Position numbers and translations under genes: made by a program
Shown: positions 3,401 through 62,279 of the stretch, piece by piece
How positions within the stretch are numbered: the first letter of the stretch is position 1
How the letters are laid out: each line of letters begins with the position of its first letter
Source: Naegleria gruberi
Taxonomy: Eukaryota
Assembly (NCBI GenBank): GCA_000004985.1
Contig: GG738921.1
Length of the DNA: 64,000 bases
Reading direction: 5' to 3' (one strand)
Notes under the pieces: generated by a model
Told to the model about the DNA's origin: nothing
Seen by the model: the letters and a program-made list of their open reading frames with translations, nothing else
The model's database searches: none

Positions 3401-4064
3401 AGGAAGTGTATGGATAATGTTAACTAAACATTATACTTCATTAGAAGAAAGAGATCGTGATTATTTAACATTTCATATACATAGAGGTAGTTCTTCTTCT
3501 ATTGGTGATACTACTGTTTTTAAACAAGGTATGGATAGAGTTTTTTATAATGAAAATACTCTCATTCATAAAGGAAGATATTCAAATGATCCACATTATA
3601 GAATTTGTTTAAATTCAGATGATTCTAAAAATAGAAAGAAATCTATTAATTTAAATTCAAATTTAAATTTAAATTCATCATCAAATAATTCATATAATTC
3701 ATCAAATAATTCATCAAATAATTCAAATGATGATTCAAATGATCAATTATCAATATTTAGAATAGTATTATCACAACATGGAATGATACAAAGTATTAGA
3801 TATTCATTATTTTGTTATTCAAGTGTACCATGTAGTTTAGAACCCATTCCACAAACATATAAATATTATAGAAATGTTAGAGATTCATGGACAAGTAATA
3901 CATGTGGTGGTAGTTGTAATCAAATTAATACTTTTAGATTAAATCCACAATATTTAATTTCATTACCAAATACAAATAATATTAATAATATTAATAATAT
4001 TAATCATCATCATTCTCATCATGTAATAATAGAAGTAATAGTCCACATACAACATTATTTGATA
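440..4064 (+). CDS. Calpain-7/PalB-like cysteine protease with N-terminal MIT-like region; multi-exon, 3' end lost in assembly gap
   Basis: Exon 1 is 440..581 (MNFNINF...LRNQ), followed by a GTATGT..ATAG intron at 582..652. Exon 2 is 653..949 and contains an MIT-like stretch (ATKYYAQAAEYGLELISK). A second intron lies at 950..1006. The large ORF body carries calpain catalytic-core motifs: DCSFVASL (Cys), ANHAYAIL (His) and NPWTKKGWKGPYS (Asn). The reading frame switches between about 1221 and 1294 with no GT available, so there is a frameshift inside an (AAT)n/(CAA)n tract. The ORF then runs into N's at 4065. Confidence 0.65.
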
Positions 4065-6358
4065 NNNNNNNNNNNNNNNNNNNNNNNNNNNNNNNNNNNN
4101 NNNNNNNNNNNNNNNNNNNNNNNNNNNNNNNNNNNNNNNNNNNNNNNNNNNNNNNNNNNNNNNNNNNNNNNNNNNNNNNNNNNNNNNNNNNNNNNNNNNN
4201 NNNNNNNNNNNNNNNNNNNNNNNNNNNNNNNNNNNNNNNNNNNNNNNNNNNNNNNNNNNNNNNNNNNNNNNNNNNNNNNNNNNNNNNNNNNNNNNNNNNN
4301 NNNNNNNNNNNNNNNNNNNNNNNNNNNNNNNNNNNNNNNNNNNNNNNNNNNNNNNNNNNNNNNNNNNNNNNNNNNNNNNNNNNNNNNNNNNNNNNNNNNN
4401 NNNNNNNNNNNNNNNNNNNNNNNNNNNNNNNNNNNNNNNNNNNNNNNNNNNNNNNNNNNNNNNNNNNNNNNNNNNNNNNNNNNNNNNNNNNNNNNNNNNN
4501 NNNNNNNNNNNNNNNNNNNNNNNNNNNNNNNNNNNNNNNNNNNNNNNNNNNNNNNNNNNNNNNNNNNNNNNNNNNNNNNNNNNNNNNNNNNNNNNNNNNN
4601 NNNNNNNNNNNNNNNNNNNNNNNNNNNNNNNNNNNNNNNNNNNNNNNNNNNNNNNNNNNNNNNNNNNNNNNNNNNNNNNNNNNNNNNNNNNNNNNNNNNN
4701 NNNNNNNNNNNNNNNNNNNNNNNNNNNNNNNNNNNNNNNNNNNNNNNNNNNNNNNNNNNNNNNNNNNNNNNNNNNNNNNNNNNNNNNNNNNNNNNNNNNN
4801 NNNNNNNNNNNNNNNNNNNNNNNNNNNNNNNNNNNNNNNNNNNNNNNNNNNNNNNNNNNNNNNNNNNNNNNNNNNNNNNNNNNNNNNNNNNNNNNNNNNN
4901 NNNNNNNNNNNNNNNNNNNNNNNNNNNNNNNNNNNNNNNNNNNNNNNNNNNNNNNNNNNNNNNNNNNNNNNNNNNNNNNNNNNNNNNNNNNNNNNNNNNN
5001 NNNNNNNNNNNNNNNNNNNNNNNNNNNNNNNNNNNNNNNNNNNNNNNNNNNNNNNNNNNNNNNNNNNNNNNNNNNNNNNNNNNNNNNNNNNNNNNNNNNN
5101 NNNNNNNNNNNNNNNNNNNNNNNNNNNNNNNNNNNNNNNNNNNNNNNNNNNNNNNNNNNNNNNNNNNNNNNNNNNNNNNNNNNNNNNNNNNNNNNNNNNN
5201 NNNNNNNNNNNNNNNNNNNNNNNNNNNNNNNNNNNNNNNNNNNNNNNNNNNNNNNNNNNNNNNNNNNNNNNNNNNNNNNNNNNNNNNNNNNNNNNNNNNN
5301 NNNNNNNNNNNNNNNNNNNNNNNNNNNNNNNNNNNNNNNNNNNNNNNNNNNNNNNNNNNNNNNNNNNNNNNNNNNNNNNNNNNNNNNNNNNNNNNNNNNN
5401 NNNNNNNNNNNNNNNNNNNNNNNNNNNNNNNNNNNNNNNNNNNNNNNNNNNNNNNNNNNNNNNNNNNNNNNNNNNNNNNNNNNNNNNNNNNNNNNNNNNN
5501 NNNNNNNNNNNNNNNNNNNNNNNNNNNNNNNNNNNNNNNNNNNNNNNNNNNNNNNNNNNNNNNNNNNNNNNNNNNNNNNNNNNNNNNNNNNNNNNNNNNN
5601 NNNNNNNNNNNNNNNNNNNNNNNNNNNNNNNNNNNNNNNNNNNNNNNNNNNNNNNNNNNNNNNNNNNNNNNNNNNNNNNNNNNNNNNNNNNNNNNNNNNN
5701 NNNNNNNNNNNNNNNNNNNNNNNNNNNNNNNNNNNNNNNNNNNNNNNNNNNNNNNNNNNNNNNNNNNNNNNNNNNNNNNNNNNNNNNNNNNNNNNNNNNN
5801 NNNNNNNNNNNNNNNNNNNNNNNNNNNNNNNNNNNNNNNNNNNNNNNNNNNNNNNNNNNNNNNNNNNNNNNNNNNNNNNNNNNNNNNNNNNNNNNNNNNN
5901 NNNNNNNNNNNNNNNNNNNNNNNNNNNNNNNNNNNNNNNNNNNNNNNNNNNNNNNNNNNNNNNNNNNNNNNNNNNNNNNNNNNNNNNNNNNNNNNNNNNN
6001 NNNNNNNNNNNNNNNNNNNNNNNNNNNNNNNNNNNNNNNNNNNNNNNNNNNNNNNNNNNNNNNNNNNNNNNNNNNNNNNNNNNNNNNNNNNNNNNNNNNN
6101 NNNNNNNNNNNNNNNNNNNNNNNNNNNNNNNNNNNNNNNNNNNNNNNNNNNNNNNNNNNNNNNNNNNNNNNNNNNNNNNNNNNNNNNNNNNNNNNNNNNN
6201 NNNNNNNNNNNNNNNNNNNNNNNNNNNNNNNNNNNNNNNNNNNNNNNNNNNNNNNNNNNNNNNNNNNNNNNNNNNNNNNNNNNNNNNNNNNNNNNNNNNN
6301 NNNNNNNNNNNNNNNNNNNNNNNNNNNNNNNNNNNNNNNNNNNNNNNNNNNNNNNNNN
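4065..6358. other. Assembly gap (N run, ~2.3 kb)
   Basis: Uninterrupted n characters. Confidence 0.99.
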
Positions 6359-11709: not shown

Positions 11710-11831
11710 NNNNNNNNNNNNNNNNNNNNNNNNNNNNNNNNNNNNNNNNNNNNNNNNNNNNNNNNNNNNNNNNNNNNNNNNNNNNNNNNNNNNNNNNNNN
11801 NNNNNNNNNNNNNNNNNNNNNNNNNNNNNNN
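11710..11831. other. Assembly gap
   Basis: N run. Confidence 0.99.
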
Positions 11832-12611: not shown

Positions 12612-14052
12612 ATGACTGAACATACTCACATTTCATCTGATACTTATGAAAGAGAGCTATTTACAAAGGAAGAAAAATTCAATGTGTTGATTAATTATTC
12701 TCCTTCCGATGCTTGTTTTCTTGATGAAATTGATCAAATGATTGATGAACAAGCTGAAGATTCTTGGTTGAGAACAAACTTTAATTTCATCAAGTCTGAT
12801 ATGGATAGAGAATCAATTCAAGGAAAATTACATTTTGCAAAGGATGCTAAGCCTAAAACCATCATGGCCTTTAAATTTCCTTCTAAGGAGAGATATCTCA
12901 TGGATACAAGTAGTATGGAAATTACTAGGGAAAGTTTGACACAATTTTTAAAGTCAATTCTTGATGGTAAGGCTGTGAGATATATTGGTAGAGAAACTAG
13001 ACATGAAAATGATGAATATTCTCCAGAGATGAAACATTTAAAGAGTATTGTTTATGATACATTTGATGAAATTGTAATGGATTCAAAGAAGGATGTTTTT
13101 GTTGCACTTTGCTTTAATGAAACTCTTGAAGGAAATTTCATTTCAACAATGGCTAAAATTCTCCAAAATGAACCTAATTTGGTTATTGGTAGAATGAATT
13201 CTGCTTACAATGATTATTCTCTTGAATATTTTCCAAAAGAAAAGTATTTCCCAAAGCTAACATTCTTTAGTGCAGCTAATAAGACACCCATTATTGGAGA
13301 TGCTTATGTTAATGATGAATGCATTACTGCCAAACAATTATTGACATGGATTCATGAATCATGCACTCATAAATTTGATATGGAAAAGTATTTGGAACAA
13401 GTAACTCAATATGATGAATTGGCAGCACTTATTGATGAATGCAAATTAGCTGTATGGAAAGTTGAAAACAATTTACATTCCATTCGTTCAATCTTGCCAG
13501 ATTATAAACATCCAGCTGAAGAGTTTTCAATTCCATTGAAAGAACTTGTGAAAGGAGAGGATAAAAGCAAGATGAAAGAGCTACTGGAAAAGATTAAGAG
13601 TGTCTCTCTTCAAGATATGATTGATTTACTTGAACAATACAAGGCAGGAAAGACTATACATTTGAAAGCAGATGAAACTGTTGATAGTTATTATTTGGAA
13701 AGATATGAAAAGGTTATTGTTGATTTTACAGCAACATGGTGTGGTAAGTTTTTATTTGATATTTACAATTTGTTAATTAAATATATGGTATATACAAATT
13801 TGTGTTGTGAACTAATTAAAATAATTATTAGGTCCTTGTCAAGCTATTGCTCCACTTTTTGGATATTTATCAAGTATTGAACAAGATATTATTTTCCTCA
13901 AAGTTGATGCTGATGAATGTCAAGAACAATGTAAAGCATTTAACGTTGATGGTTTTCCAACATTTAAATCATTTAAGGGAAAGAATATGGTACAAGTTAT
14001 AATTGGAAGTGATTTGAAAGGATTGAAAAAGATGGTTGAAAATTTACATTAA
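12612..14052 (+). CDS. Thioredoxin-domain-containing protein (C-terminal WCGPC thioredoxin fold), one intron 13744..13831
   Basis: Exon 1 ends ...FTATWCG at 13743, and an 88-nt GTAAGT..TTAG intron follows. Exon 2 opens with G-PCQAIAPLF, which completes the WCGPC active site, and continues KVDADECQEQCKAFNVDGFPTFK to the stop at 14050-14052. Confidence 0.75.
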
Positions 14053-31223: not shown

Positions 31224-31273
31224 NNNNNNNNNNNNNNNNNNNNNNNNNNNNNNNNNNNNNNNNNNNNNNNNNN
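31224..31273. other. Assembly gap (further 50-nt gaps at 32706..32755 and 42926..42975)
   Basis: N runs. Confidence 0.99.
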
Positions 31274-32697: not shown

Positions 32698-32755
32698 ATC
32701 AAGTGNNNNNNNNNNNNNNNNNNNNNNNNNNNNNNNNNNNNNNNNNNNNNNNNNN

Positions 32756-38426: not shown

Positions 38427-39529
38427 CTATTGAAAAATAATACTTTCAGAAAGGAAGGGCATTTCTTCAACACTCTTCTTCAGTGAAAACTCTTCATCCT
38501 TTCCTCCATATGTGAATACTCCAATAAAATTATTGTTATAACCAATCACTCGAATTGTTTCCCACATTTTAACAAGTTGATGTTCAATAAAAAGGTCAAA
38601 TTCAAACATTTGTTCAATTTGCTTATTTCTGCAATGAGGAGATGGAAGGATATTTTCTCTAATTGCCATCAATTCAACATTTGTATATTTCTTCTTTAGA
38701 GATGTAATAGTTTCACCTTTAATCTTCTTTGACAATAATCCAAAATCAATTTTTTCTTTAAATTCTTTCAAAACAGTTTCAAAAGACACCCCATTCGATG
38801 AATTGACGAATGAGGCCATATAACTATGCGATGAATCATTTGAACTTGTCATTGAAAATTCCTTAGGAAGACAATATTCACACTTTTTAAAAGGTTTAAA
38901 GATTTTAAAGTCTTCCTCATGAATTCCTTGAGTTTCATCTTTACCAATAATGATTTTTACAAACAAGATACCAGCAGCCTTTTTTCCATCTCTTAGAGGT
39001 AACATTTCTTCGTATTCCTTACCATACTCCAATTCTTCCGATTTAAGAGTCCAAGATGTACTTCCCAGAAAATCCTTAATACAACAATTGATATAGTAAA
39101 TAAGTAATAATAATAATATTATTAAATTTGATTCAATTAATACAAACAAATTATGAACTTACATCTTTTGAGAATCGATCGTAATCATAAACTTCAAAAA
39201 TCACTTCAATTCCCTTGTGCTGCCTATCTAAACAATCAAGGGAATGGAACGTCTTACTTTCATTCCATGAGGGATTTAGATTTTCCATCACTACGGAAGT
39301 TCTTTGCTCCCAAACCTTGTCTGAATTATTTGGAGGCAATCTTTCCTCTCCGACTGATCGTAATTTAATCACCACATACTATTTTAAATCAATTCATGTA
39401 TTAATTATTAATTGAAAATTAAAAGCAATAATACATTACAGGGTCCGAAAGATTATTCAGATCTGATGCTTTGAGTCCAGTGGCTTTATATGGAGAAATG
39501 ATGAGAGTATCAATTGATGAGAAGGGCAT
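38427..39529 (-). CDS. C2-domain protein A (N-terminal C2 + conserved C-terminal domain with PSPHCRNK motif), 3 exons
   Basis: The exons are 39529..39440, 39378..39163 and 39074..38427, separated by introns of 61 and 88 nt. The C2 signatures are SDP|YVVIKL, NLNPSWNE and FEVYDYDRFSKD|DFLG. Confidence 0.7.
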
Positions 39530-39659: not shown

Positions 39660-40809
39660 CTAGAGAAAGAGGGTATTTTCTGAAACTCTGGCAACTTCAG
39701 CTTCACCCATTCTCAAAATACTATGAAGTGCATCTTGTGGTTCAATATAAATGTATAGTCCTAGTTTTCCATTTGAATGAGAAACAATACGGAAAGTTCC
39801 CCACATCCTTATTCCTCCCTTCTTTTCAAGTAAGAGAATGTACTCCATAATATTGGTAATTAATTTGTTTCTACAATGAGGATCTGGGTTAACATGTTCA
39901 TTCTTACTCTTAACTTCCACCTTGGAGTATTCCTTTTTCATGTCACTAATCTTTTGGTCACTCACTTGCTTGGCAATATCTGCAAACTTGGCATTGCTAT
40001 CGAATGGAATAAACTTGGTCAATAATACTTCAGCTCTCTTCATATCTGCAAAAACTGCATTATGCGCATCGGTTTCTTCACTTGAAGAGATGAGAGAAAA
40101 TTGTCTTGGGGTACAAATTTCAGCAAAACCAGATTGGAATGGGGAAATAAAGTTAAATTCCTTATCAACTCTATCTTGTTCATAACTCCAAATCTTGTAA
40201 CTGATATACAGTGTTCCCGATTTACAATCAGTTAATTCAAGGACCTCTGAATATTCCCTATCATGCTCAAGTTTATCACCATCAAGTAGAATTTCAGCTT
40301 GTCCAATAGGATCCTTTCAAAATGATGGATTGATGAATACATTTGAATTTAACACTTACATCCTTAGACAATAAATCCCAATCATAAACTTCAAACTTTA
40401 ACTTGATTCCCAAGCCAGTGTCAAGATACAATAAACTGTGGAATGTTTTATCCTCATTCCATTCGGGATTTAAGGTCTTTTTTTTGACGCTTGTTTTTTG
40501 TCTCCATTCCTTAGCTGTTTCCTTCATTATATCGTCAAATCTTTCATCATCAATGGCTGATTTTGCTTGTACAATCACATACTATTACAAGTCAATAAAC
40601 CAATACTAATTAACAATCACTTACAGGATCCTTTGGAAAGAGTCAATACATCAATCGAATAATAAATTCACTTACAGAAAATCCATTAAGATCAGCCTAT
40701 TACGATAATTAAGATGAATTGATAGCACCAATAAGAGTCAACCTACAGCCTCAAGATTTTTTGCGTGCTTGATTGTCACGGTTAATGTATCCATAGCTCT
40801 GAAAGGCAT
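39660..40809 (-). CDS. C2-domain protein B, tandem paralogue of A; 5 exons including a candidate 6-nt micro-exon (40625..40630) and a 1-nt frame problem in a T5 run
   Basis: The exons are 40809..40747 (MPFRAMDTLTVTIKHAKNLEA), 40697..40676 (ADLNGFF/S), 40630..40625 (GATCCT = DP), 40581..40360 (YVIVQAKS...NPEWNE...FEVYDWDLLSKD) and 40313..39660 (DPIGQAEILL...PDPHCRNK...). The introns are 49, 45, 43 and 46 nt. Confidence 0.6.
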
Positions 40810-41121
40810 CTTTAAATTATGTTTGATAAAAATCTAGTAGCAATTGTTGAATCAGTGAAAATGAACACTTGATTGTTTGTTATTTTTTCTGTATTGCTTT
40901 TTGCTTGCTTAATATTGTTATTTACTTTTCAAATCCCATAGTACCTTATTAAAAGTTGTTAGGGACATGAAATTACCATTTCGGGAACGGTTTTTATATA
41001 ATGCCGAAAACCTAAACACCTTAATAGAGTATAACAATAATTTAAAGGTGGGTACTAGCAAAATATCAACAGATTTTTAATCAAGAGTGACTTCACTAGT
41101 TTATTACAACAAATGTTCAAT

Positions 41122-41866
41122 TTAAGCTGTAGTAGTGGTGTTTGAAGCAACTACTGGAGTAACAACAGTTTCAGTCTTCTTGGCCTTCTTAGATCCCTTC
41201 TTGACCTTCTTAACCTTCTTAGCACCCTTCTTAGCAGTCTTTTTTACCTTCTTAGCACCCTTCTTTGTACCCTTCTTGACCTTCTTGGCACCTTTCTTAG
41301 TGGACTTCTTAACCTTCTTAGCCTTCTTAGATCCCTTCTTGGCACCCTTCTTGACCTTCTTAACCTTCTTAGCAGTCTTCTTTGCCTTCTTAGTACCCTT
41401 CTTGGCAGATCTAACAGTCTTCTTTGCCTTCTTAGCACCCTTCTTGGTGGACTTCTTTGGTGTTTTCTTGACAGATCTTACAGTAGTCTTGGTGGACTTC
41501 TTGGCAACCTTCTTAACACCAGTTTTCTTTGGAGTCTTCTTTACAGATCTAACAGCAGTCTTCTTTGGGGAAGCCTTCTTGGTTGCCCTCTTTGTTGTTC
41601 TCTTGACAGATCTAACGGCCTTTGGCTTCTTTGGAGCAGCAACTCTAGTGGAGTTTCTTTGACTAAGAGTCTTGATAACGGTAGGTGGCTTCTTAGCTCT
41701 TGTGGTTTTAGTGGCTCTAACACCTCTAATTTTAGCCTTAGCCTCAGTCTTCCAATTGATAAGAATAAAAGCAACAATTAAAATTAGTACGTACAGCCAT
41801 AGTCATGCCGGCAACACAGGCCAACAAGGCAATCAAACACAATGTAAGGAAAAGCTTAGCACTCAT
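41122..41866 (-). CDS. Secreted poly-lysine/alanine repeat protein (signal peptide + ~200 aa of AKKGAKKVKK-type repeats), 2 exons
   Basis: Exon 1 is 41866..41795 (MSAKLFLTLCLIALLACVAGMTMA). A 46-nt GTACGT..GGAAG intron lies at 41749..41794. Exon 2 is 41748..41122 and is open to TAA. Lys is encoded almost exclusively by AAG, with GCT/GTT/ACT/GGT/AGA bias (a highly-expressed-gene codon pattern). The listed + strand ORF 41135..41662 is its antisense (FLAFLDPFL repeats). Confidence 0.55.
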
Positions 41867-42925: not shown

Positions 42926-42978
42926 NNNNNNNNNNNNNNNNNNNNNNNNNNNNNNNNNNNNNNNNNNNNNNNNNNAAA

Positions 42979-58900: not shown

Positions 58901-61900
58901 TTATGTTTGTAAAAAGTTCAATAGTGATTCCAAAGATTCTGCAACTTGAATAAATTCTGGTCTTTGATTAGGTTCATTATTCCAACATTCTTTCATAATT
59001 TCGATATAATCCGAAAGAGATAGTTCTAATTTTGAAATTCCATATTTATCAATTTCCTTTTTTGAAATATTATTTTCGATCCATGCTTGATCTGTAGTAA
59101 TAATTCTTGGTCTATGTCCTTTGATGACTTCCATCAATATGGAAAATACTGTATTGGTGTCTGACAATTCATCCGAAAATGGGACCATTTCGTATAATAA
59201 TTCCCACAAAATAATTCCAAAAGAGTAAACATCAATTTTAGTAGTAGGACCTCTATGATGATTAGAAAGTAACTCCTATTAGAAATTATATTTAAATTAT
59301 TCAGAAATGTTATCAAAAACTTACAGGTGCCTTTTAAAATAGTTTAAATTAGAATTCGAATAAAACTTACAATATCTTTACATCAAAATTAAGAAACTGA
59401 TCTAATTTCGTATTACTTACATAATAGAGTTCCAACATTTGTGGTCATTGTTGCAGAATTCCCATTAACAATCTTACTTAATCCAAAATCTCCCACTTTT
59501 GCATTCATATTCTTGTCGAGTAGAATATTTGCACATTTCAAATCTCTGTGAATTATCTTGTTTGGCCTAATTGAATGTAAATAGACCATTCCTTTACATA
59601 CATCATTCAGAATATTTAATTTTGTAACGTAACTCAATTTCTTTTTTCCTATTTTTGATTCGTAAATTGCTCCATCTAAGGCACCATTCGAAAGATATTC
59701 CACCTTAATATTCAATTCATTAAGTACATCAATTGTATTCAAATACTTACAATCATATATTTTGATTCAGTGGATAGAGAAATTCCATAACAACTAACAA
59801 TTGAAGGATGTCGTAGGGAGCTCATCAATAAGGCCTCCCTTTCAAATTCTTCATCATCAGTGTCTGTCTTGAATTGCTTAATGGCAACATCTGTTTTGTT
59901 CCAAAGTCCTTTATAAACCACACCCGACGCTCCTTCACCAATCTTTTTCACGATAGTAATATCTGAAATTGGAATAATGTACCTTTCAGGAGTTTCATTA
60001 TTCAAACTATTCTCAAGTAAGGGCAAGTTTTCGATACCATTTCCAAATACAAAGTATTTGTTTTTGAATTGATCTTCAATTCTCTTCTCCGCCTTTTCTT
60101 GTTTTCTCAATTTGAACAACTTTTTCATTACATAAACGATTACAAAAATTGTAAAAGAAAAAATGATGGTGAGTGAGATAGTTCCCAAAACTGCTGATGG
60201 AATAATTATCTCAAATGGAATGGATTGACAGTAATAATACTTGCCTCCTCCCAACACCAATGAAAATCCTGCTGGACATTTCATTACTTCCACATTAACA
60301 AACGAGGTAATAACATCCAAGTCTGTAATTGAAAATCTCAACTCAAAATGGTCAGAATTGAAATCCTTATCAACGAGTAGGTATTGTAAATTGTTGAGCA
60401 TGATATATCCTTCTCCGACTTGATAATCCTGCTTTTGTAGAATGATATTCTTCACAGAAGAAACTACCAAAAGTGGGGAGTCACTAGAAAGCTTTGAAGT
60501 GCTTTGATTATATTGATCATAAATGAATAATTTGAAATCAAGTGGTTGGCCAGGATACACTTGAATGGATTTGCCTTCTGCAACTCTGAATTGACCATCC
60601 TGTCCTCTAAATTCAATTCTTTGGCTCACCAATTCTGAACCGATATCATTTCCATAATAGTAAGCTCTGTTTTCACCAATCATTCGATATTTCGTATTTG
60701 GATTTAAGGAACTCGATGTGGATGATTTGTAGATACAACCTCCAACTTGAAATGCAATATTATCCTGACAATAACTGTCAGTTGTGGCAATACCACTTAA
60801 TAGATTGAGGAGATAGATGGCTCCTCCCTTCTTTGCCTCATTTCCAATAAATGAACAGTTTGAGAGAGTTAGGGAATTACTGATCTCAATTCTAATGGCA
60901 CCTCCAAATTCTGCAACATTATTCGAAAAGAAACAATTGAAAACTATTAAGCTATTGCCATTGTAAAAAAGAGGTGAACCACCCATATTGTTTCTGAACT
61001 GACACGTCCTTACCATTGAAGCTGTTTGCTCAGATGTCATGATTGAAACAAAAGAGGAATCTTTCAGAACTCTATTGGAAATGAATTTTGATTCGTCTAT
61101 TACTATTGGAGCTACAATTGTATTAATATCCCAATAGATATCCTTAATAGATAGTATTGTTCCAGTATTGTTATTAAATGTACAATTAAATACTTGAACA
61201 GTTTTACCTTTTTGAATGGAAATCAAATTGGCAAATATATTGTTAGTTACATTCCAGTTTCGAATAGAGATTTCGGTAGAACCAATCAAGCTCAGATAGG
61301 ATTCGGATATATCACCAATAACTCGATCAATAATACTAATTCCATCCAAAACAACTTGAAAAACTATCATAATCTGAATAGTTGGAATGGAGCTAGCCTC
61401 TGTAATATTCAACACGTTTCCAGCATTGAAAGCACATAAAGAACTAGCTGTCCAATGACAATTGTTAATTTTCACAGTTCCAAAAAAATCAATATTTAGA
61501 ATTGCATTCAATAATTTAGAATTATCTATTTGAATAGACTCTGTCTTACTCAATCTTACTTTCGTTTCAGAAATGGTCGATTCAAATACTCGAAATGTCT
61601 CCACCATTGCATTTTTCAATCCAAAGTTGTTGAAATTTGACTGATTAATAAGTAAATTTTTCACATTTAATTCACTCATTACCAACAAATCACTATGGCA
61701 TTGATCAAAACTGAGAATTTCCAATTTCCTATCCAAACTCAATGCTCTACCAACTCCTCCATTCACAAAATGAAATCTCTCAATTACACTCTGCCTATTA
61801 ACGAGCCACTCACATCCAGGATATATAAAACCATTAGTATCCATTCCAATCCAACTCAATTCAAATCTATTGGTATATTCGGAAAAGTCAAACAATTGTC

Positions 61901-62279
61901 CACATTCATAACTTCCCTTCATCATTATTTTCATTTGAAATTTGAATAATTTTGATGAATTGCCAATAGGAAACATGGAATATAATTCATCGTTAGCAGC
62001 AGTGATGACTTGATGAAATACTTGACATGGTAGATTCACATCAGTGCATGTATTATTCTTCGGTTGTTGTGATTGGTTGGAGTCAATGTAATAGGTACGT
62101 TCAATACTCTGCTGTTGTGCTCCGACAAGAAGAACAACTAGGTGATGTATTAAAATTAATGACACGATGAAGATTTGTGCAATTGTTCGAGTAGACAAAT
62201 GGTGTGGCAGTAGTTGTGGTAGTTTCATTCTTTTTTGTTGGAAGATATTGTCCAAGGTTTTGTGTGTTACTGTTATCAT
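58901..62279 (-). CDS. Receptor-like protein kinase (TKL-type) with signal peptide, parallel beta-helix (PbH1-like) ectodomain, one TM helix and kinase domain; 5 exons including 5-nt and 6-nt micro-exons
   Basis: The exons are 62279..59751, 59703..59421, 59375..59371 (ATATT), 59330..59325 (GCACCT) and 59275..58901. The introns are 47, 45, 40 and 49 nt, all GTAAGT..AG. Kinase motifs are present: GEGASGVVYKG, AIK, YMIV|EYLSNGAL, HRDLKCANILL, DFGLSK, NVGTLL-Y-I-A-P-E-LL and DVYSFGIILWEL. The joined CDS is 3198 nt, which is divisible by 3. Confidence 0.75.

Follow-up and report, generated by a model that had tools for sequence, protein, structure and literature searches.

Two consecutive micro-exons of 5 and 6 nt complete the Y-I-A-P-E motif of a predicted receptor-like kinase in Naegleria gruberi

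The closest described counterparts of the exons considered here are found in plants, where exons of 1-15 nucleotides (nt), adjacent micro-exon pairs and micro-exons coding for the cores of conserved domains are established, where conserved GTRAGT donors occur at 1-nt exons, and where the rice gene Os08t0562700 carries adjacent exons of 5 nt and 12 nt confirmed by reverse transcription polymerase chain reaction (RT-PCR) (PMC8831610). We have analysed a stretch of 64,000 nt of Naegleria gruberi contig GG738921.1 (assembly GCA_000004985.1; hereafter the window), in which a gene on the minus strand, NAEGRDRAFT_75112, contains two consecutive candidate exons of 5 nt and 6 nt, termed here micro-exons A and B. 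The reading that we favour from the sequence evidence, with a probability of roughly 0.85, is that this is an intact, expressed receptor-like kinase gene of the TKL type whose two micro-exons are constitutive and are both required for the Y-I-A-P-E motif and for the reading frame. A search of one collection of papers found none on micro-exons in Naegleria.

Like the ultra-short micro-exons of plants, the predicted kinase pair consists of adjacent, constitutive internal exons of ≤15 nt with GT-AG introns on both sides and strong GTRAGT donors, codes for parts of a conserved motif, and has relatives that lack the flanking introns and carry the same bases within a larger exon (PMC8831610). The plant cases differ in having been confirmed by RNA sequencing (RNA-seq) and RT-PCR, in being mostly unannotated and in having longer introns, whereas the Naegleria pair, known here from sequence, has both exons at ≤6 nt, introns of 40-49 nt and an existing annotation. 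The 1-nt exon in the P450 PKG motif of Fusarium CYP621A is likewise a tiny exon in a conserved motif of a short-intron genome (median 56 nt), and it was recognised by its out-of-phase flanks, an over-long apparent intron and an intronless relative, which is the logic that we apply to the kinase; that exon, however, is single and is backed by about 20 orthologues and by reads of the Sequence Read Archive, whereas Naegleria has 5 + 6 nt and intron positions that vary among paralogues (PMC12940212). The preliminary description of the locus had called two motif-coding micro-exons in a row unusual, a view that does not hold against these plant and fungal precedents (PMC8831610, PMC12940212). Neuronal micro-exons of animals (3-15 nt) resemble the kinase pair in size and in their canonical splice sites, but are mostly alternative, multiples of three, set between long introns and governed by tissue-specific regulators (PMC13149111, PMC4317164), whereas in this single-celled heterolobosean one of the two exons is 5 nt long and obligatory for the frame, and the introns are tiny.

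The kinase gene is modelled as five exons, all on the minus strand. Exon 1 (59751..62279; 2529 nt, an open reading frame (ORF) of 846 aa) encodes an N-terminal hydrophobic segment, a Chlam_PMP/beta-helix ectodomain, a transmembrane segment and kinase subdomains I-V up to SKYMI, and is followed by intron 1 (59704..59750; 47 nt, GTAAGT...TTAAG, phase 0), which separates MI from VEY. Exon 2 (59421..59703; 283 nt) reads VEYLSNG...HRDLK...DFG...NVGTLL and ends in AAT GTT GGA ACT CTA TTA T, the last T, at 59421, being base 1 of a Tyr codon. Intron 2 (59376..59420; 45 nt, GTAAGT...TAAAG, phase 1) splits this codon, and micro-exon A (59371..59375; 5 nt, ATATT) finishes it as T-AT and adds ATT (Ile). 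Intron 3 (59331..59370; 40 nt, GTAAGT...AAAAG, phase 0) separates Ile from Ala, micro-exon B (59325..59330; 6 nt, GCACCT) supplies the Ala-Pro of the APE motif, and intron 4 (59276..59324; 49 nt, GTAAGT...AATAG, phase 0) separates Pro from Glu. Exon 5 (58901..59275; 375 nt including the TAA stop at 58901) begins at 59275 with GAGTTACTT (GAG TTA CTT) and encodes ELLSNHH...DVYSFG...CWNNEPNQRPEF...LQT, which is kinase subdomains VIII (Glu) to XI. Three introns are packed into 11 coding bases. Candidate start codons of the gene are M1 (62279), M18 (62228) and M119 (61925), the last being the one used in the public model.

Re-reading the sequence bore out the structure put forward in the preliminary description: ATATT at 59375-59371 and GCACCT at 59330-59325 are each preceded by AG and followed by GTAAGT, the introns around them measure 45, 40 and 49 nt beside an intron 1 of 47 nt, and the five exon lengths sum to an in-frame coding sequence (CDS) of 3198 nt, or 1065 aa. 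As had also been stated, splicing exon 2 straight to exon 5 yields a T+GA stop codon, whereas splicing in both micro-exons gives Y-I-A-P-E. The translated kinase domain contains NVGTLLYIAPELL within the longer stretch TMTTNVGTLLYIAPELLSNHHRGPTTKIDVYSFG of the conceptual protein, and the modelled junction of exon 2, A, B and exon 5 reads GTTGGAACTCTATTATATATTGCACCTGAGTTACTTTCTAATC. Both exons are internal micro-exons with canonical AG and GT on their two sides (AAAG/ATATT/GTAAGT and AAAG/GCACCT/GTAAGT). In the micro-exon genes of Schistosoma the coding region consists mostly of many symmetric micro-exons (multiples of 3) with long introns between them. Assignment of the kinase gene to this type was ruled out by its having two micro-exons among five exons, one of them 5 nt, introns of ≤49 nt and an exon 1 of 2529 nt.

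The kinase domain is matched by Pfam PF00069 and, over profile positions 1-258 of 258, by PF07714 (PK_Tyr_Ser-Thr; residues 774-1056, E = 8.5e-53), and it is full length only when both micro-exons are included. Weak Pfam matches to Chlam_PMP and Beta_helix fall in the N-terminal half, and hydrophobic peaks lie at residues 33-55 and 696-716; this order of signal-like segment, beta-helix ectodomain, one transmembrane segment and kinase domain agrees with the earlier designation of the product as a receptor-like kinase. The top solved-structure relatives include the TKL kinases CTR1 of Arabidopsis (3ppz, E = 4e-40) and human TAK1. Alignment with CTR1 is gap-free through subdomains VIb-VIII, including GT..(W/Y)(M/I)APE, where VGTLLYIAPELL (vgtllyiapell) stands opposite aGTPEWMAPEVL, as the preliminary description had anticipated, and other solved kinases likewise align there without gaps; unlike CTR1 and TAK1, the Naegleria kinase is joined to a PMP-repeat/beta-helix ectodomain and a transmembrane segment. 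The full motif set is that of a TKL-like eukaryotic protein kinase and recurs among the invariant columns of the family. With the Gly-rich loop (GEGASG), VAIK, HRDLKCAN, DFG, APE and the subdomain XI Arg (QRPEF) all in place, we predict a catalytically competent enzyme. No further kinase was found among the proteins of the window.

Relatives of the gene place the motif independently of its introns. The family is present in Naegleria and in environmental assemblies, and a whole-library HMMER search, headed by multi-kinase proteins, returned about 10 members of 320-1190 aa, in each of which GTxxYxxxE is contiguous. In a 12-member family alignment the GTLxY(M/I)APE region is gap-free, so that the relatives act as intron-free length markers and call for exactly Y-I-A-P at this point, as had been expected. 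About 10 relatives of 1000-1200 aa share the architecture of PMP-repeat/beta-helix, transmembrane segment and kinase; the relatives from N. lovaniensis and N. fowleri are shorter. A scan of JGI metagenome contigs with the family alignment, using generic HRDLK and CDFG patterns, gave 80 loci with kinases about 25-35% identical to the query and no family member. The family of this architecture is sizeable (P0350, P0379, P0403, P0409, P0414 and P0429, 1000-1200 aa). At 1-1409 of one N. lovaniensis locus (L005) an 806-aa Chlam_PMP gene lies directly upstream of a 414-aa kinase gene, and some gene models of N. lovaniensis seem to be split.

Residues 119-1065 of the conceptual protein, including the motif segment given above, are reproduced exactly by the public protein XP_002669923.1 / EFC37179.1 (NAEGRDRAFT_75112, 947 aa), a sequence that this DNA can yield only with all four introns and both micro-exons in use. 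The splice structure at YIAPE is thus not new and has been on public record since the genome was annotated, so that the statement that micro-exons this small are almost never annotated fails here; the novelty of the locus is low, the exact structure being in the public model and the phenomenon being documented in other eukaryotes. The public protein begins at Met119 and leaves out the hydrophobic, signal-like residues 33-55, whereas the reading frame extends without a stop to 62279 (61925-62279, minus strand), and a gene caller began the corresponding ORF of a metagenome copy (P0001) at the equivalent of M18. The public N-terminus is probably too short, with M1 or M18 nearer the truth.

That copy lies on an environmental contig of 3793 bp from the European Nucleotide Archive (ENA ERZ929261; L001), which is 98.2% identical across the whole gene. 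Both micro-exons are present in it, as are the eight splice-site dinucleotides and the four GTAAGT donors; introns 1, 2 and 4 are unchanged, and two substitutions in intron 3 (59364 and 59345) are the sole differences within introns and micro-exons. The CDS differs at 17 synonymous and 21 non-synonymous codons (ratio of non-synonymous to synonymous rates, dN/dS, about 0.33), and the exon-5 ORF and its stop codon are intact, a comparison that is consistent with a gene under selection. The window is part of a draft genome and contains six runs of N, so an error of sequencing or assembly deserves consideration, but the nearest gap is more than 15 kb from the kinase gene and L001, an independent assembly, has the identical structure bar the two intronic substitutions, which excludes an assembly artefact; we give artefact of any kind a negligible chance. 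The contig derives from an environmental metagenome (run ERR1078381, project PRJEB11402), and the 98.2% match indicates that the sample contained a sister species or a very close strain. To judge by a myosin fragment in ENA (P0075, 84% identity), public metagenomes include yet another Naegleria species. The origin of the window in N. gruberi is supported by its myosin-I ORF, which matches D2W159 of that species at 100% identity.

Were the micro-exons unused, the 145 nt between exons 2 and 5 would be removed as one intron, or some other junction would be chosen, and the gene would be a decaying pseudogene or encode a kinase-dead receptor, its product truncated or devoid of the motif. A single GTAAGT...AG intron of 145 nt would be ordinary in a genome whose mean intron is 203 bp (PMC8296547), and four alternative single-intron joins do stay in frame. 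These four are the only single GT...AG introns that preserve the frame, but each removes the GT...APE segment and relies on poor sites, either weak GTTGGA or GTAATA donors or exonic acceptors, while the direct join of exon 2 to exon 5 meets the TGA at the junction. Furthermore, the 124-codon ORF of exon 5, with its kinase subdomains IX-XI, is preserved here and in L001 alike, the public model includes both micro-exons, and two AG/n/GTAAGT sites that spell the missing Y-I-A-P are not credible by chance. We regard disuse of the two exons as very improbable. The sole route to an intact kinase is the inclusion of both micro-exons.

The role of chance was gauged from the composition of the window. 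GTAAGT occurs 17 times on its two strands against 22.7 +/- 4.8 in first-order Markov shuffles, so there is no overall enrichment, and 4 of the 17 sites belong to the kinase gene. Shuffled windows contain on average 1.44 matches to a loose micro-exon pattern (a GT[AG][AG]GT donor, 35-70 nt, AG, 1-25 nt and a second such donor). The matches in the actual sequence were the two kinase micro-exons, two small exons belonging to a C2-domain gene, and a single spurious locus. For two adjacent chance matches that also restore the frame and spell Y-I-A-P at the correct kinase site, a rough estimate is about 1e-10. The spurious match, a third candidate near 12629 on the minus strand, is antisense to the start of a plus-strand gene and has GTGAGT/GTGGGT donors; it was judged to be a chance occurrence. 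Thirteen of the 17 GTAAGT sites lie on the minus strand, and most are plausible donors of introns of 41-50 nt (22795, 33506, 40359 and 44085).

We propose a model for the splicing of this region in which three short GT-AG introns (45, 40 and 49 nt) divide 11 coding bases so as to leave two constitutive internal exons, the inclusion of which would complete Y-I-A-P-E, the anchor of the activation segment, and keep the C-terminal lobe in frame. Each intron would be recognised across itself, by intron definition; all three donors are perfect GTAAGT, and each intron may contain its own branch site. Candidate YNYTRAY-like branch sites, identified by eye, are TCTTAAT in intron 2, about 19 nt from the 3' end, and TTCTAAT in intron 3, at a sensible distance from the AG. 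By a steric argument that goes back to the older mini-exon literature, splicing factors cannot occupy a 3' splice site and, at the same time, a donor that follows after 5-6 nt. The introns would therefore be removed sequentially rather than simultaneously, and every ligation would place the next GTAAGT behind a long exon, where it would serve as an ordinary donor.

Several points weigh against this account of the gene. The order of intron removal and the branch sites are predictions, not observations, and in intron 4 the top YNYTRAY match by eye lies 3 nt from the AG, which makes its branch site uncertain. With L001, exon 5 taken alone shows 3 synonymous against 4 non-synonymous differences, and the divergence from that contig is just 2%, so that conservation of the micro-exons there is weak evidence by itself.

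The proposed order of removal recalls recursive splicing, where at AG/GTAAGT a 5' site just behind a 3' site serves the next step. Recursive sites, however, leave no exon or a discarded one and lie in very long introns, whereas the kinase gene keeps 5 + 6 coding bases between introns of 40-49 nt, and a recursive splice site (ratchet point) was ruled out on these grounds. The short introns of the window generally have A-rich 3' ends (AAAG, ATAG or TAAG) without a pyrimidine tract, and several of their donors follow a T. Introns of comparable length recur in the window, at 41-50 nt in several other places, and longer ones are found in a C2 paralogue (61 and 88 nt) and in the myosin gene (about 185 nt). 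With a genome mean of 1.7 exons per gene, beside the mean intron of 203 bp (PMC8296547), the five-exon kinase gene is intron-rich for the species.

A different function for the same exons would be that of a regulated switch, with the inclusion of A and B tuning the amount of active receptor. Skipping micro-exon A shifts the frame and brings a stop after 8 residues, skipping both likewise gives a premature stop, skipping B alone preserves the frame of a kinase that loses Ala-Pro and reads YIELL, and retention of any one of introns 2-4 leads to a stop 8-16 residues past NVGT. Animal micro-exons are typically alternative and tightly regulated (PMC13149111), and N. gruberi transcriptomes show exon skipping and intron retention (PMC6142364). 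The three perfect GTAAGT donors nevertheless argue for efficient constitutive use, no conserved element flanks the exons (intron 3 being the one part that varies between strains), and most paralogues carry the same residues in a plain exon, in a family that manages without such a switch. We consider regulation of this kind unlikely. RNA-seq of N. gruberi exists as PRJEB23822 (PMC6142364).

The constitutive pair that we favour sits in a region where intron positions differ among family members. Eight members called as single ORFs have no intron around Y-x-A-P-E, nor do N. lovaniensis C9374_008807 and C9374_008101 (loci L004 and L086). A JGI metagenome relative that is 54-59% identical (L003) has one 46-nt intron at P/E, the position of intron 4, with TAT ATT GCA CCA contiguous with the upstream exon, and its own nearest relative (P0195, 64% identical) has no intron. 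N. lovaniensis C9374_013523 (L005) has one 61-nt intron at M/A, matching intron 3. Inside the Tyr codon, where intron 2 lies, none of the relatives examined has an intron. Two of the three clustered positions are thus each common to a different relative, and we infer that the cluster reflects positions variable in the kinase family. Repeated loss of old positions, for example by cDNA-mediated loss, and repeated gain at one spot would fit these data equally.

A more specific version of gain holds that the extra introns are introner-like, recent copies of a neighbouring intron produced through local duplication or through reverse splicing, which would account for clustering beside an older intron. 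Each of the two micro-exon genes in the window has one clustered position in common with a relative and others that it does not share, and short words common to neighbours can be seen by eye, TAATTTAAA in introns 3 and 4 of the kinase gene and TTGACTCTT in two introns of the C2 gene. Such copying requires significant similarity among the introns. When 12 intron cores were compared by local alignment in all 66 pairs, with 500 shuffles per pair, the best p was 0.006 and that of intron 3 against intron 4 was 0.19, neither significant after multiple testing, so that the required similarity was not detected and the explanation was set aside. The positions of introns 3 and 4 are moreover each common to a different relative, which suits repeated loss of old positions as well as it does gain. 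We hold recent copying to be improbable.

The preliminary description had proposed a genome search for other exons of 5-6 nt between AG and GTAAGT; within the 64-kb window a second 6-nt exon built in the same way, GATCCT, lies 19 kb away. This exon (40630-40625, minus strand) encodes the D-P of the calcium-loop motif SDPYV in a C2-domain gene (39660-40809, minus strand; 321 aa, C2 Pfam E = 4e-21) with introns of 50, 45, 43 and 46 nt. GAGGCT and the 50-nt intron are followed by a 21-nt exon, GCTGATCTTAATGGATTTTCT (40696-40676, minus strand); the 45-nt intron then precedes GATCCT, the 43-nt intron follows it and leads to TATGTGATT, and the spliced product reads NLEAADLNGFSDPYVIVQ. A tandem paralogue (38427-39529, minus strand; 317 aa, C2 E = 1e-18) encodes SDLNNLSDP within one exon and is interrupted at the same P/Y position by a single 61-nt intron with a GTAATG donor, without the two upstream introns of its neighbour. 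An exact look-up of both conceptual C2 proteins in the public collection found neither, and the public models may therefore differ, at the micro-exon or elsewhere.

In total the window holds three exons of ≤6 nt in two genes, each adjoining an intron position common to a relative. YIAPE in the kinase and SDPYV in the C2 domain, each with one position common to a relative and others not, suggest the tentative and somewhat doubtful possibility that constitutive exons of ≤6 nt form a sizeable class in N. gruberi, part of it unannotated, which would arise from clusters of two or three introns of about 45 nt within a few codons of conserved motifs. If this wider class were true, it would provide a compact natural system for studying how the spliceosome handles 3' and 5' sites 5-6 nt apart in very short introns, and for finding out whether such clusters reflect introns gained repeatedly at one spot or old introns since lost from most copies. 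The interest of the kinase case lies in its tight intron packing and in this hint of recurring clusters in the genome; whether introns were gained or lost could also be approached through the positions that vary around one motif across a large family of paralogues.

For NAEGRDRAFT_75112 itself the analysis amounts to a check, in which the public 5-nt and 6-nt exons prove right and the kinase is predicted to be intact, not broken. Gene prediction and read mapping are both known to falter on very small exons, and conserved domains might be recovered or repaired if the Naegleria genomes, that of the pathogen N. fowleri included, were re-annotated with micro-exons in mind; the value of doing so is suggested by the finding of three exons of ≤6 nt in two genes within 64 kb, together with a C2 product that has no exact public match.

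Elsewhere in the window, runs of N (assembly gaps) lie at 4065-6358, 11710-11831, 31224-31273, 32706-32755 and 42926-42975. The near-zero GC content at 4001-6000 is due to the first of these and is no real AT-only tract. A gene for a small protein at 41120-41865 on the minus strand has a signal-like start, MSAKLFLTLCLIALLACVAGMTMA, a short intron and long Lys/Ala-rich repeats (KKxAKK, VRSVKKT...).

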